The position numbers were made by a program, and so were the translations under genes. This document shows, in pieces, positions 6,430 through 12,310 of a stretch of 64,000 nucleotides of DNA (position 1 is its first letter; each line of letters starts with the position of its first letter). The notes beneath the pieces were generated by a model. The model searched no databases, was not told the DNA's origin, and saw nothing but the letters and a program-made list of their open reading frames with translations. Origin of the DNA: a virus (Duplodnaviria > Caudoviricetes); IMG/VR virus record IMGVR_UViG_3300044825_002173, positions 1,134-65,133 of that record. One strand, written 5' to 3'.

Positions 6430-7587
6430 TCAACCACGAGAAGAATCAAGAATGTTATTTCTCCAATCTTCACTCATGTTAACCATGATTGCTTCTGCAG
6501 ACTCAACACTATCAGCATATCCTTCATCAAGAAGATGCTCAAGAACCACATCATAAAGATCAAGAGTTTCAACTTCTTCAATTAAATATGACTCTACTAA
6601 ATTAGAGGTTTGATCATCACACAAATTCTCAATTAGGTCGTATGCTTCATAAACATTGTTCACATATCCATCATTAATCAGGTCTTGAACTAAGATATCT
6701 AGAAGTTCAAAACTCTCTGAAGCAGTAAGTCTTGCTTCTCTTTTTTGTGCTTGTATTCTGGATTTTTTGGTTTTAAAAGTACCAGCAGGTTGTCCTTGTT
6801 GAACCGTTTCGGATGGACCAGATCCAGAAGCTGCTGAAGCAAGTTTAGCAGCTGCTGCTTTTCTTCTATCTACGGAAACTGTCTTAGTTTTTGCTGCAGG
6901 AAGTGCCGGTCTCTCTTTTCCAGGTTGTCCAATTCTTGGATTTGCTGAGGTTCCAACTGGAGATGCTTTAAATTCACTAGTATCTCTTCCTCTAGAAGCA
7001 GCTGCTTGGCGTCTAGCAGCTCTTCTCATTTCTCTACCAGTTGTTCTTGCTTTTGCTTCTCTTGCAGATTGTCCACTGAACTCTTTCTTAGCAGCAGAAG
7101 CACCTGCTTTAACTGCACTGCCAACTCTCTTAACTAGACCAACGATTTTTTCTTTAGCAGACTTAAGTTTACCACCAACTTTTGCAGCACCACCTGCTGC
7201 AGCAGAAACTGCTCCAGCACCTAGTGTCTTTGCTCTTTCTCCTGCTCTTTTTGCAGCACCCTTAATTCTTTCCATTCTTGCTGTTCTTCTTTCAGAAGCT
7301 TCAGCAGATCTCTTTGATTTAGTGGTTGATTTATTATATGCTTTTGCTTCTTTAGAACCTGCAGGAGCATATGGATTCATTTCTAAAATGAGTCCTTCAA
7401 AAACTTGAACACATTCAGAAAGTTCTACACCTTCAGAAAGAATTTCTTCCATTACTTGATCAAGTTCATTGTCACTTAAATCATCAATAAAAGAAAGATC
7501 TTCTTCGATAGAAATATCATCACGAAGTTCTTCATCATAAACAGCAACATATGCTTCACACAAACCTCTAATCTGTTTTGAGTCCAT
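6430..7587 (-). CDS. late hypothetical protein: acidic ends with LLDEGYA module, Ala/Lys/Arg-rich core
   Basis: 385-aa ORF; TATAAATA at 7615-7622; paralogous modules in 25162..26232. Confidence 0.8.
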   Translation of the reverse strand: MDSKQIRGLCEAYVAVYDEELRDDISIEEDLSFIDDLSDNELDQVMEEILSEGVELSECVQVFEGLILEMNPYAPAGSKEAKAYNKSTTKSKRSAEASERRTARMERIKGAAKRAGERAKTLGAGAVSAAAGGAAKVGGKLKSAKEKIVGLVKRVGSAVKAGASAAKKEFSGQSAREAKARTTGREMRRAARRQAAASRGRDTSEFKASPVGTSANPRIGQPGKERPALPAAKTKTVSVDRRKAAAAKLASAASGSGPSETVQQGQPAGTFKTKKSRIQAQKREARLTASESFELLDILVQDLINDGYVNNVYEAYDLIENLCDDQTSNLVESYLIEEVETLDLYDVVLEHLLDEGYADSVESAEAIMVNMSEDWRNNILDSSRG

Positions 7588-8791: not shown

Positions 8792-9192
8792 AGATCTCCC
8801 ACCTTACGATTTTCTGAGCGTTCAATACTAAATGCACCTTCAGGATAACGAGCACTTAGTTTTTCAAAGTTCATTTGGATTACTTCTTCAATAGAAATAT
8901 CAAGTCCAATACATGCCTGTGAAACATACCACATAATATCTCCAAGTTCACGCTTTAGATGAAAAAGATTTTCTTCATTTACAGGTTTACCTTGGAATAC
9001 AATTTTTTTCACCACCTCAGTAAATTCACCTGCCTCAGCACTCATACCTACAGCAGCAGTAAGCAATCGCTCAGTAGGAAATCCTTTTTCACGAAGTTCA
9101 AGGAGACGATCGATGAAAGGTGTGTGTTCTTTACTAGGATTAGAGGTAGTGGCATTAACGAACTCAACATACTTGTTCAAATCAATAGTCAT
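8788..9192 (-). CDS. mazG: MazG-like nucleoside triphosphate pyrophosphohydrolase
   Basis: AEAGEFTEVVKK...ELGDIMWY...NFEKLSARYP motifs. Confidence 0.92.
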   Translation of the reverse strand: MTIDLNKYVEFVNATTSNPSKEHTPFIDRLLELREKGFPTERLLTAAVGMSAEAGEFTEVVKKIVFQGKPVNEENLFHLKRELGDIMWYVSQACIGLDISIEEVIQMNFEKLSARYPEGAFSIERSENRKVGDL

Positions 9193-9614
9193 TAGAATTT
9201 AAATCCTTCGAATGTTTTTTTGGGTTTCTTTTCTTCATAATCATACTCTTCATCCTTTCCGTTGTCAAGAATATCTTGTTGAGCAGATTGTTCGCAATCA
9301 TAAAGACGCATTTTAGCACGATCAATACCAATCACAAAACGCTTATGAATGGTAGGATCATTATAGCGATTCTTAAGTTGTTTAACAAGAATCTGTCCAA
9401 GTCCTTCAAGTTCTTCTGTAGAAATCAAAGCAAACATCAAGTCAGCAGTAGCAGGCAAACCAAATGACTCTGAAGTATCGGTCAATTCCACATCAGAACT
9501 ACTATTATGCGTGAGAATATCATTCGCATAGAACAGATGATTTCCAGACACTTCAATATCTACAAGTTCTCTTTCATCAAGTTCTTCAATTTTTAGAATT
9601 TTTTTCAATAACAT
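9192..9614 (-). CDS. gp41: DNA helicase gp41, C-terminal fragment fused to split-intein IntC
   Basis: MLLKKILKIEELDERELVDIEVSGNHLFYANDILTHN|SSSDVELTDTSESFGLPATAD...KQLKNRYND: IntC with terminal HN|S, then the helicase C-terminus. Confidence 0.95.
   Translation of the reverse strand: MLLKKILKIEELDERELVDIEVSGNHLFYANDILTHNSSSDVELTDTSESFGLPATADLMFALISTEELEGLGQILVKQLKNRYNDPTIHKRFVIGIDRAKMRLYDCEQSAQQDILDNGKDEEYDYEEKKPKKTFEGFKF
9504..9614 (-). mobile_element. split intein C-fragment (37 aa, gp41-1 type)
   Basis: Block F/G motifs DIEVSGNHLFYAN and THN, followed by Ser+1. Confidence 0.95.
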
Positions 9615-9616
9615 TT

Positions 9617-10168
9617 TCAATTCAAAATAGCATAACGAACTCTATAAAAAGCAACTAATTGAGGATAAGTCATTTTTCCATATCCATCTTCAACAACTAA
9701 TGTTTCTGTTCTAGCAGGAGTATAAGAAACCTCATAAAGAAACACCATCTTGTTATTTTCTTTGAGTTCCTTTACAAACTTCACAATCTCATCAAAGTTC
9801 TCACCCACAACCTTATAAGTTTTTGCTTCAACACTCTTTCGGTTATAAAGAGCAGTTGGTCCCAAAAGAAATCCATCAATATAATCTTTGATTTGATTTA
9901 CATAACCAATCGTATTCTCTTTTAGATTTTCTGGTTCCTCTTCTTTAAAAAGTTCATAATTCTTTTTCATAGAGGAAAGTGAATTCTCTAACCACTCATC
10001 AAAATCAAAAGTGATACAATAGTTTTCTTCTGGAATGGGTTCATCTTCCCATTCAAACTTTTTGTTTTCTCCAAACTCTTGGATTTGATTGAAATGAGAC
10101 ACTAATGCCTTATGCGTGTCTTCATCCGTAATCGCAAGGTTTTCGTTGTATTCATAAGTTTTAGTCAT
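9617..10168 (-). CDS. acidic hypothetical protein inserted between the gp41 halves
   Basis: 183-aa ORF with ATGA overlap to the endonuclease; no motif recognised. Confidence 0.75.
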   Translation of the reverse strand: MTKTYEYNENLAITDEDTHKALVSHFNQIQEFGENKKFEWEDEPIPEENYCITFDFDEWLENSLSSMKKNYELFKEEEPENLKENTIGYVNQIKDYIDGFLLGPTALYNRKSVEAKTYKVVGENFDEIVKFVKELKENNKMVFLYEVSYTPARTETLVVEDGYGKMTYPQLVAFYRVRYAILN

Positions 10169-10929
10169 TTTTTAATCCTCCCACAAACAAATCCTTTTTC
10201 AGTATAATTTTCATAATCCCAAATATCAACACATAAACATTCTACCACATTATTAATCCAAATAACACCTTTTCCATTTTCCCAACCATTCAATAAGTAA
10301 AGATTAATTTCTTCTTTTTTGATAAATTTTCTTTCTTTTAAATCTTTTTTATGTATCCAAGTTCTACCAGAAGAACATTCTGCTATTTTATTTTTATGTT
10401 CCTCTGTAAGTTTTTTCCCTCTTTTACTCTCTGCTATTTTATTTTTAGTTTCTTGTGAATGATTCGTATTGAATTTTGTGTATAAACCAAGAGAGTATCT
10501 ATGCTTTTTAGTTTTTCTCATTTTTTCTTTTGATTGTGTAGAAAAACTTATTCCATAGTTCCACGCCCTACCATTTCTAATATTCTCTTCTATTTGTTCT
10601 TGATTTGCTCCGTGATAGTGTTTCTCATAATTACAAGTTTCATATCTCATATTATATCCACATCCATCCATACAATGAGATTTGTATTTACGGATATAAT
10701 AATCTTCTTTCATTCTTGCTTCACTTTCATCAACTTCTTCTATCACCTCAATAGTAAAGTTTCTTTTACCATATTCAATAATAGCATCAGATAGAAGTTT
10801 ATTTCCTTCGTGCCTTCCAAGAGTAATATGTTCTTGCAATCTTCTATCCAATTCATTTTTAGTCAATCCAACATAATACATATGCGGATTGACTGCTGTG
10901 TTGGTAATTAGATAAATCTTTACTTTCAT
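10165..10929 (-). CDS. free-standing GIY-YIG homing endonuclease with NUMOD3-like repeats
   Basis: KIYLITN...YYVGLT...RRLQEH catalytic module and GYN motif; HSQETKNKIAESKRGKKLTEEHKNKIAE repeats. Confidence 0.9.
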   Translation of the reverse strand: MKVKIYLITNTAVNPHMYYVGLTKNELDRRLQEHITLGRHEGNKLLSDAIIEYGKRNFTIEVIEEVDESEARMKEDYYIRKYKSHCMDGCGYNMRYETCNYEKHYHGANQEQIEENIRNGRAWNYGISFSTQSKEKMRKTKKHRYSLGLYTKFNTNHSQETKNKIAESKRGKKLTEEHKNKIAECSSGRTWIHKKDLKERKFIKKEEINLYLLNGWENGKGVIWINNVVECLCVDIWDYENYTEKGFVCGRIKK

Positions 10930-10933
10930 ATCA

Positions 10934-10973
10934 GTAAGTTATACTACTATTATTTATAAGAAGTATAACTTAC
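10934..10973 (-). promoter_or_regulatory. late promoter TATAAATA inside a perfect 12-bp inverted repeat upstream of the endonuclease
   Basis: GTAAGTTATACT...TATAAATA (10958-10951)...AGTATAACTTAC, ending 4 nt before the ATG. Confidence 0.85.
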
Positions 10974-10978
10974 ACATA

Positions 10979-12310
10979 CTATTCCTTCACATAAAGATAC
11001 ATACCCTCGTTTAGTCCGCCCTTGATATTCATTTCGCCCGTTTGAGTTGGAAATAAGTGCTCCTCACTACAAATGATTTCTTTACCATCTTCCAAAGTAA
11101 TCTTATAAGATTTCTTTTTAGATTTTGGGAAGACATTTAGAACTTCATTATAACCAGTATTTGAAAGCAACAAATCTCCAACTTGAATATTTGAAAGTTC
11201 TTTCAGTCCTTGCGGTGTTTGAACTTGTGTTTTCAAATCCAAGCAATACCCTGAACGAGTAGTTTGAGTAGCACTTACAATCGGAACATTAAACTCAACA
11301 GCAAGTCCACGAAGTTCTTCGGCAATTGCTTTCACAAAAGTGTACGAATTAATATTTGCATTTCCACGATATCTGGAAGAAGAACAAATGTTAAGATAGT
11401 CAATAAAGATAATATCTGGTTTGAATGACTTCTTAAGAGCAAGTTCGTTAAGAAGAGATTTAAAATGTCCAGCATGAGCAGAAGCAGTTGGATATTCCTT
11501 AATAATCAAAGTGCCTTGAGTCTTCTTTGCCAGATTATTAACTTTATTTTCAAAAATTTGCTTAGGAAGATCAACGATGTCTTGAATAGGAACATTCAAG
11601 AGGTTTGCGTCAATTCTTTCAGCAATGCGTTCTTCTGCCATTTCCAGCGTAATGTACAAAACGTTCCTCCCTTGGAGCAAGACGGAGCTAGCAACATGGC
11701 ACATGAATAGAGACTTGCCGACGCCCGTACCAGCAAGAGCGATATTAAGAGTTTTGTTAGGGATCCCACCTTTCGTGATTTTGTTAAAATATTCAAGATC
11801 AAATTCAATTTTATCCTCCTTTTTATGATATGATTCGTACCTTTGTTCATAATCTTGTAAGTAATCGTGTCCAATGTGAGTATCAAAACTCACAGAAAGA
11901 GCATCAGAAAGAATAGAAGGAATACTATCTCGATTTTTCTTTTCATCCTTACCATCAGCAATATGAATTGATTCCATAAGTGCCAAATAAATGGCACGAT
12001 CACGACACCACTTTTCAGTACAATTTACTAACCAGTTAAATTCAACTGAAATATCTTCGAGAGAAGAAATCAAATGAATAATCTCTTTAAAAGAAGTGTC
12101 ATTGATGTCCTTACGTTTTTCTATCTCAATACAAAGAACTTCTTTGGTTGCTGGTTGATTATATTGCTCAACAAAAGAAAGTATTTCTTCAAATACAATC
12201 TTTTGGTTTTGATCTTCAAAATATTCAGATTTAATAAATGGTATAACTTTTCTGATGTATTGCTCATTATATAACAGGTTTCTAAGAATTAGAAACTCAA
12301 CCTTCTCCAT
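10979..12310 (-). CDS. gp41: DNA helicase gp41, N-terminal fragment fused to split-intein IntN
   Basis: Walker [33 protein letters not shown], then CLDLKT intein start and a stop after 88 aa. Confidence 0.96.
10982..11245 (-). mobile_element. split intein N-fragment (88 aa, gp41-1 type)
   Basis: Block A CLDLKTQV, block B CSEEHLF, no endonuclease domain. Confidence 0.95.

Follow-up and report, generated by a model that had tools for sequence, protein, structure and literature searches.

Few split inteins are used as widely in protein engineering as gp41-1; to our knowledge, it has so far been known only from short metagenomic assemblies. Here we describe what appears to be a near-identical natural allele of it in a replicative helicase gene (gene 41), now placed, unlike the earlier gp41-1 loci, in 64 kb of phage genome. 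The sequence analysed (the window) comprises 64,000 nt, positions 1,134 to 65,133 of the IMG/VR record IMGVR_UViG_3300044825_002173, a metagenomic contig of 65,133 bases that is ~34% complete by the CheckV estimate. Judged by sequence comparison, the locus is best read as a natural allele of the gp41-1 split intein in gene 41 of an uncultured T4-like cyanomyovirus, a reading to which we assign a probability of roughly 0.92.

The layout of such fractured genes has been described by Dassa et al. (2009; PMC2677866), in whose text the N-terminal part of an enzyme fused to the N-terminal intein half (IntN), 27–51 non-coding bases, an endonuclease gene, and the C-terminal intein half (IntC) fused to the remainder of the enzyme follow one another on one strand. 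Seven loci in that text, gp41-1 to gp41-7, are inserted at position 356 of the gp41 of cyanophage P-SSM2; they are cyanophage-like, have GIY-YIG endonucleases and an upstream uvsX, are >85% similar to cyanomyovirus gp41, and show Ka/Ks < 1; loci of this family have a hairpin with a late-promoter element, TATAAATA, upstream of the endonuclease, which itself is missing from the gp41-7 allele. Other fractured loci (NrdA-2, NrdJ-1, IMPDH-1, gp41-8, DnaE, ligase, and terminase) have the same one-strand architecture but different host genes and unrelated inteins, and half of them carry a Vsr-like endonuclease instead of a GIY-YIG one (PMC2677866). Fractures without any intein are also reported there, namely mobE in nrdA of phage Aeh1 and a GIY-YIG gene in gp43 of Aeromonas phage 25, where a free-standing endonuclease with a late promoter and a hairpin sequestering its ribosome-binding site (RBS) splits an essential gene of a T4-like phage. 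The gp41-1 intein itself consists of an 88-residue IntN and a 37-residue IntC, uses Ser at the +1 position and is reported to splice very fast; its structure was solved with the DnaE split intein as molecular-replacement model, from a construct carrying an engineered C1A change (bioRxiv 10.1101/546465). The window agrees with all of the features published for gp41-1 to gp41-7 in the text cited above: gene layout, tie to cyanophages, endonuclease, and hairpin have all been known since 2009, and that basic picture is left unchanged by the window and its relatives.

All features of the locus lie on the minus strand, and the helicase is encoded as two genes of that strand. The first, an open reading frame (ORF) of 443 aa (12310..10979), ends in our own translation with ...ATQTTRSGY, the 88-aa IntN, and a stop. 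Its N-extein (11246..12310) corresponds to residues 1–355 of a gene 41 DnaB-like replicative helicase, as indicated by profiles (PF03796 DnaB_C, E 1.2e-17, and PF00772 in Pfam; phrog_19, E 1.6e-107, in PHROG), by the T4 gp41 structures 8DTP/8DUE (E ~3e-82, aligned to T4 residue 360), and by 75% identity to residues 1–355 of the uninterrupted gp41 of Prochlorococcus phage P-SSM2, the reference for all P-SSM2 comparisons here. The C-extein (9192..9503, with its stop at 9194..9192) reads SSSDVELTDTSES...GFKF and supplies the remaining 103 residues, 356–458; it matches phrog_19 (E 2.7e-21) and T4 gp41 residues 362–436 (E 1e-14), and its residues 1–103 are 85% identical to P-SSM2 gp41 356–459. No helicase residue is lost across the break, since T4 gp41 is aligned up to residue 360 and again from 362, and the insertion point falls between P-SSM2 residues 355 and 356. 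The original prediction, made from the letters and an ORF listing, had proposed a helicase that breaks off after ...ATQTTRSGY and an 88-aa IntN, resumes about 1.37 kb downstream behind a 37-aa IntC, and would be rejoined as TRSGY/SSSDV: the coordinates, the sequence, and the identity of the host gene were right, 1,367 nt separate the last IntN codon from the ATG of IntC, and the junction would restore a helicase with nothing missing.

IntN (10982..11245, residues 356–443 of the precursor) is in frame with the N-extein and opens with Cys1; the block-B motif CSEEHLF lies within it, and a TAG stop at 10981..10979 closes it. IntC (9504..9614) is MLLKKILKIEELDERELVDIEVSGNHLFYANDILTHN (MLLKK...ILTHN) and aligns with residues 91–128 of Protein Data Bank (PDB) entry 6QAZ. 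An alternative TTG start at 9620, two codons upstream of the ATG at 9614, overlaps the stop of the preceding ORF, whereas the equivalent of the Met at 9614 is the first residue in 37 of 41 related sequences, with a stop before it in three; the start was for these reasons placed at 9614. In a search of all PDB chains, the best support for the intein came from 6QAZ and 6RIZ ("cyanophage-like gp41-1 intein"), which matched IntN at E ~4e-51 and the IntC-bearing protein at E 1.5e-16. Identity to gp41-1 of 6QAZ is 82/88 for IntN, setting aside the engineered C1A of the crystal construct, and 35/37 for IntC. The six IntN substitutions are M>L, I>L, V>L, S>K, K>N, and C>Y; the two in IntC are M2L and I>V (in ELVD). 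The window allele, 93–95% identical to gp41-1 itself, thus differs from it in these eight residues, including Tyr in place of Cys83, and it shares with gp41-1 to gp41-7, as far as the published text describes them, the host gene, the site, the 88+37 halves, Cys1, Ser+1, and uvsX upstream. The assignment to a gp41-1 type, which the original prediction had made, is borne out by the alignment, the equal lengths, and the common +1 Ser; each of the residue differences it listed is real against 6QAZ/6RIZ, and its remark that one internal Cys is lacking holds as well, because the IntN of the window has Cys at positions 1 and 59 only.

All hallmarks of a class-1 intein are in place (C1, the block-B His of ...SEEH..., ...THN, and S+1), and they are conserved among relatives. 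When IMG/VR was searched with IntN, 48 loci from many data sets proved to encode an IntN 82–97% identical to it, and the record of the window itself had no further intein match. Among the 45 IntN sequences that could be compared (the window and 44 loci), Cys1 and the block-B His are invariant, and in 43 of the 44 loci IntN stops at the same codon; the terminal His-Asn and Ser+1 are invariant in 41/41. Position 83, in contrast to these, is Cys in 35, Tyr in seven, Ser in two, and Phe in one of the 45. The +1 residue is Ser in the intein-bearing alleles, Ala in P-SSM2, and Gly in an intein-free contig from a marine run (X4, below); the Ser at +1 is therefore associated with the intein. As with the Ssp/Npu DnaE split intein, an essential replication protein would here be joined by natural trans-splicing through class-1 chemistry. 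The DnaE halves, however, are widely separated in the genome, have no endonuclease between them, and are followed by Cys at +1; in the window the halves are 1.37 kb apart, a mobile cassette lies between them, and the +1 residue is Ser.

The virus itself is a T4-like cyanomyovirus (Kyanoviridae), as shown by core T4 replication and virion genes together with cyanophage best matches. The window carries a gp43 polymerase, a gp46-like SbcC subunit, the gp23 major head protein, the gp20 portal, the gp18 sheath, and MazG; the gene order uvsX-gp41-mazG is that of P-SSM2; and at the nucleotide level the window is closest to myoviruses of Synechococcus and Prochlorococcus, at 68–76% identity. The 3.5-kb region of the locus is matched by 692 phage records, of which 376 are Synechococcus phages, and none of the 692 covers at least 80% of it. 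The link between this intein family and cyanophages, which the original prediction put forward as an insight from the long context, is accordingly sound in substance and not new, having been published by Dassa et al. (2009). A tblastn search of 50,697 phage records found no cultured phage with a gp41-1-type IntN. The best match in that search, at 44% identity over 81 residues (E 2e-14), was to Shigella phage ESh36 (ON528746.1, 24667-24909), a T4-like coliphage relative, in a gene annotated as DNA primase/helicase.

Since the window is a metagenomic contig, and since an intein-free allele does exist in X4, the fracture could in principle be an assembly artefact or chimera of a gene that is contiguous in the real phage. 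Among the 48 loci that hold IntN, however, the split is seen in all 41 whose IntC can be read in register, and contigs of other sequencing runs bridge the junctions. These runs were X1 and X2 (DNA runs of two studies), X4, and X15 (an RNA library); X1 may be the source sample, and X2 and X4 belong to other studies. Error-free X1/X2 contigs span the C-extein, IntC, the downstream passenger gene (ORF183), and the endonuclease (9390..10534 and 9390..10645), and likewise the endonuclease, spacer, and IntN (10505..11097; 10712..10984 and 10955..11093); an X4 contig spans IntC, ORF183, and the endonuclease with one difference. Contigs from X15, with 4–10 differences each, cover ORF183, the ORF183/endonuclease junction, endonuclease/spacer/IntN, and IntN/N-extein; they show the presence of relatives only, and as DNA may be in the library they cannot reveal transcription, strand, or ends. 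The intein-free X4 contig skips 9498..11252 (1,755 nt) and has 13 other letters in its place, so that 1,742 nt are lost on balance, exactly the stretch from IntN to IntC; it reads ...TRSGF-G-SSDV...; as it occurs beside an intein-bearing contig of the same run, filled and empty sites coexist in one community. Because the IMG/VR loci share the split and error-free contigs from two studies bridge every insert junction, the fracture is not an artefact, and we regard that explanation as the least probable of those weighed here. Only a little more probable is the idea that gene 41 is a decaying pseudogene while another helicase does the work. With the record ~34% complete, a second intact helicase could lie elsewhere in the genome, and this counts against our reading. 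No other DnaB-like helicase is present in the 64 kb of the window, though, and both exteins are full length, aligning end to end with the gp41 of P-SSM2 and T4. Purifying selection is also apparent from pN and pS, the proportions of nonsynonymous and synonymous differences from the window (medians over loci): pN is 0.12 against a pS of 0.62 for the N-extein (helN), and 0.037 against 0.348 for IntN (n = 44), a ratio of ~0.1. The fracture moreover persists across helicases of relatives that have diverged to 64% amino-acid identity.

The halves might, alternatively, no longer splice, and serve merely as a dimerisation handle or leave the helicase to assemble non-covalently, in the way that the intein-less split NrdA of phage Aeh1 is said to do. 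Genes fractured without inteins are indeed cited as working, with Aeh1 nrdA and gp43 of Aeromonas phage 25 as the examples in the text of PMC2677866. In the locus described here, unlike those cases, whose proteins reassemble non-covalently, intein halves flank the break, and the residues compared that are needed only for the chemistry are invariant (45/45 for Cys1 and the block-B His, 41/41 for His-Asn and Ser+1); Ser+1 accompanies the intein, and the allele is 93–95% identical to an intein reported to be very fast (bioRxiv 10.1101/546465). Two further findings, besides the incomplete record, weigh on the other side: the allele differs from the characterised gp41-1 at 8/125 positions, and the Pfam intein model PF14890 scores only 16.5 and 18.8 bits, below its gathering threshold of 35.8. 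PF01079 (15.6 bits against a cut-off of 29.7) and TIGR01445 intein_Nterm (18.4 against 24.5) behave similarly, and TIGR01443 intein_Cterm scores 24.2 bits on IntC, above its cut-off of 15.6. Sub-threshold Pfam scores are expected of such a small split intein, although formally the thresholds are missed, and for the predicted family membership the direct PDB match to gp41-1 was treated as decisive over them. We therefore consider a non-splicing locus improbable, if somewhat less so than a pseudogene: sequence identity and the invariant catalytic residues argue that the split intein is real and probably functional, and an essential helicase would then depend on trans-splicing.

The original prediction left out what lies in the gap between the two genes, that is, a hairpin-forming spacer, a homing endonuclease, and ORF183. 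The endonuclease (10165..10929, minus strand, 254 aa) is a free-standing gene of the GIY-YIG type with a NUMOD3 motif. It exceeds the cut-offs of TIGR01453 "group I intron endonuclease" (61.5 against 56.05 bits), a family that we take to be the GIY-YIG group, and of PF07460 NUMOD3 (21.6 against 20.4 bits). In PHROG it matches phrog_314 (E 1e-24) and phrog_5123, "homing endonuclease with GIY-YIG motif" (E 2e-11), and its tblastn matches in phage records are annotated as GIY-YIG or SegB-like endonucleases at 24–33% identity. The pattern ...KIYLITN-x7-YYVG... can be made out by eye at its N-terminus; what speaks against the assignment is that the Pfam GIY-YIG model does not match the protein at E <= 0.1. 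A sequence search of the PDB gave nothing at E <= 10. Candidate cleavage targets are the P-SSM2-type sequence TRSGF/ASSDV and the intein-free site in the X4 contig.

Between the IntN stop and the endonuclease ATG lies a non-coding spacer of 49 nt (10930..10978), within the 27–51 nt that the text of PMC2677866 gives for such loci, and, as described there for gp41-1 to gp41-7, it contains a hairpin with TATAAATA. A 12-bp stem (10973..10962 with 10945..10934) closes a loop that carries TATAAATA at 10958..10951, and an outer stem of 4 bp (10979..10976 with 10931..10928) takes in the A and U of the endonuclease AUG. The predicted fold has a free energy of -15.8 kcal/mol (z = -2.9), a stability that 2 of 200 shuffles attain; TATAAATA is invariant in 39/39 endonuclease-bearing sequences, and mean column identity of the spacer is 97%. 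Fold energy and conservation, taken with the analogy to the Aeh1 case in the text of PMC2677866, suggest that the hairpin, next to the start codon as it is, probably keeps the endonuclease untranslated in read-through transcripts. Several results tell against this regulatory reading. There is a single compensatory change, although 96.9% of cells are paired; covariation is no better than in 24 of 500 shuffles; and pair 25-50 is broken in 7 of 20 distinct sequences. Since 10 of the 18 pairs do not vary at all, covariation is too sparse to serve as a test. Nor is TATAAATA enriched in the window, where eight copies stand against 7.3 expected (2630, 7615, 10951, 26253, 35650, 38850, and 49132 on the minus strand; 60515 on the plus strand), and sigma-70-like promoters in the region are not above chance (17 sites against 19.7 expected). 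Terminator-like sites are likewise without signal (three against 1.9 expected). Seven of the eight copies of TATAAATA lie on the coding (minus) strand.

Divergence from the window points to a cassette with a history of its own. Median pS is 0.62 for helN, 0.62 for the C-extein (helC), and 0.55 for uvsX, against 0.35 for IntN, 0.30 for the endonuclease, and 0.21 for IntC, so that synonymous divergence of the cassette is about half that of the helicase. It lies below that of helN in 23/24 loci for IntN, in 21/21 for the endonuclease, and in 17/17 for IntC. Median pN/pS is 0.039/0.205 for IntC (n = 37) and 0.068/0.296 for the endonuclease (n = 36). Amino-acid identity of helN follows that of uvsX (rho 0.80, n = 21) and helC (0.69, n = 17) but not that of IntN (-0.04, n = 24). 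Locus L001, for example, has the most similar cassette (endonuclease 100%, IntN 97%) with a helN that is 85% identical, and L046 has the most similar helN (95%), yet one of the most different IntN sequences (85%). Every one of these comparisons is made against the window, and the loci are interrelated, so that the counts overstate independence, which detracts from the argument. Lower synonymous divergence and the lack of coupling to the host gene nevertheless fit a cassette that is younger than gene 41 and has spread horizontally among diverged phages.

A course of events can be proposed that joins these features. The whole block would probably be transcribed along with the replication genes, and in the read-through transcripts the hairpin would block translation of the endonuclease. 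From the late promoter TATAAATA in the loop, a shorter late transcript could arise and be translated. The two precursors would associate through their intein halves and follow the class-1 route, in which an N-S acyl shift at Cys1, transesterification to Ser+1, cyclisation of the terminal Asn, and an O-N shift would yield a seamless helicase of 458 aa reading ...TRSGY-SSSDV.... The endonuclease, for its part, may cut the intein-free gene 41 of co-infecting phages, whereupon repair would copy in the entire cassette, a homing step in keeping with a cassette that is younger than its host gene and whose phylogeny does not follow it.

What distinguishes the window from gp41-1 as described in the published text, where the endonuclease runs into or overlaps IntC, is a passenger gene between the two. 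ORF183 (9617..10168, minus strand, 183 aa) begins with an ATG that overlaps the endonuclease stop (ATGA) and its own stop is separated from the IntC ATG by 2 nt. Searches of Pfam, PHROG, and NCBIfam assign it to no family, two faint Pfam matches (E 0.02 and 0.058) falling short of the cut-off, and its 66 homologues, at 39–93% identity, are all nameless or "hypothetical"; Synechococcus phages B3/B23 have a free-standing homologue (32% identity), surrounded by other small genes annotated as hypothetical. An AlphaFold2 model (pLDDT 85.4) had no Foldseek match in the PDB at E <= 0.001, the best being 0.13, and no usable match was obtained in the ESM Atlas. The best VIA-align match among 48,161 chains was to encapsulin/HK97-like shell proteins, with a Z of 5.8 (103 residues, rmsd 3.9); as this Z is below the noise level of 7–8, no fold or function is assigned. 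Among 40 loci with both intein halves readable and the gap complete, ORF183 is full length in five, reduced to a 75-aa remnant in six, and absent from 29. The 35 gaps that lack an intact copy keep intact intein halves, so that ORF183 is dispensable for the intein; most likely it is a hitch-hiking accessory gene with no part in splicing.

The contents of the 40 gaps vary widely. The endonuclease is present in 33: alone in seven (gaps of 807–858 nt) and with one or more further ORFs in 26 (988–1,600 nt). These further ORFs include a passenger family with a ...LLDEGYA...AIMVNMSE.W... C-terminal module in 17 loci, an N6/N4 DNA methyltransferase behind the endonuclease in three (L028:1591-2397, L030, and L040; PF01555, E 3.2e-29), and a few others or singletons. 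A 41-residue C-terminal module in common with the passengers of the 17 loci (66% identity, E 7e-19) occurs also in a 385-aa ORF without known family elsewhere in the window (6430-7587, minus strand). Six loci have a gap of 234 nt without the endonuclease (L011-L014, L045, and L047): the left arm of the hairpin is kept and leads straight into the ORF183 frame at ...KVVGENFDEIVKFV..., and these alleles are derived from a window-type ancestor by a deletion of ~1.13 kb (the endonuclease and the 5' part of ORF183) that left both intein halves intact. The remaining locus (L032:4565-5592, gap of 650 nt) looks decayed: no stop follows IntN (...YVREF), the endonuclease is absent, the IntC-like ORF reads ...NHLFDENQTLFIN and not ...THN, and it is possibly a copy in decay. 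In a contig of the X15 library, the end of IntN is joined to the last ~105 nt of the endonuclease, with 711 nt skipped (window 10271-10981), which is a second kind of endonuclease deletion. As splicing would repair the helicase after translation, genes placed between the intein halves could find a safe harbour there, and the split intein with its endonuclease may be a cargo-carrying mobile element in which unrelated accessory genes are swapped and, through homing by the endonuclease, ferried between divergent cyanophages; we offer this tentatively, with the odds rather against it. The text of PMC2677866 makes no mention of passenger genes in fracture gaps, and its Figure 1 and supplements may already show some.

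The locus and its relatives show several stages of the element side by side, from empty sites through endonuclease-bearing and endonuclease-deleted to cargo-bearing alleles. They also provide a natural panel of 45 IntN and 41 IntC variants that marks positions tolerant of change, such as position 83, where 10 of the 45 have Tyr, Ser, or Phe instead of Cys. What is new here is modest: the 64-kb context, the passenger ORF, the variety of cargo, and quantitative evidence that the cassette moves independently of gene 41.

A second insert was seen in the helicase of some relatives, in the Walker A loop between ...ALAG and TGVGKS, at which position the helicase of the window is uninterrupted; it occurs in 7 of 35 judgeable loci (L012:5092-5517, also L011, L013, L014, and L038; L009:1216-2339; and L041:1891-2911). 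In L012 the insert is a single in-frame stretch of 142 aa, with Cys first and ...SSHN last, followed by Thr, and it is homologous to the VidaL intein (PDB 6VGV, E 5.9e-13). In L009 and L041, by comparison, it is split after ~16 residues; the interruption is, in the former, an ORF on the opposite strand in which an HNH-like motif was recognised by eye (no Pfam match) and, in the latter, a passenger gene. Contiguous and atypically split alleles of one intein therefore share one site. The helicase of L009 and L041 is accordingly encoded in three pieces, with two different split inteins.

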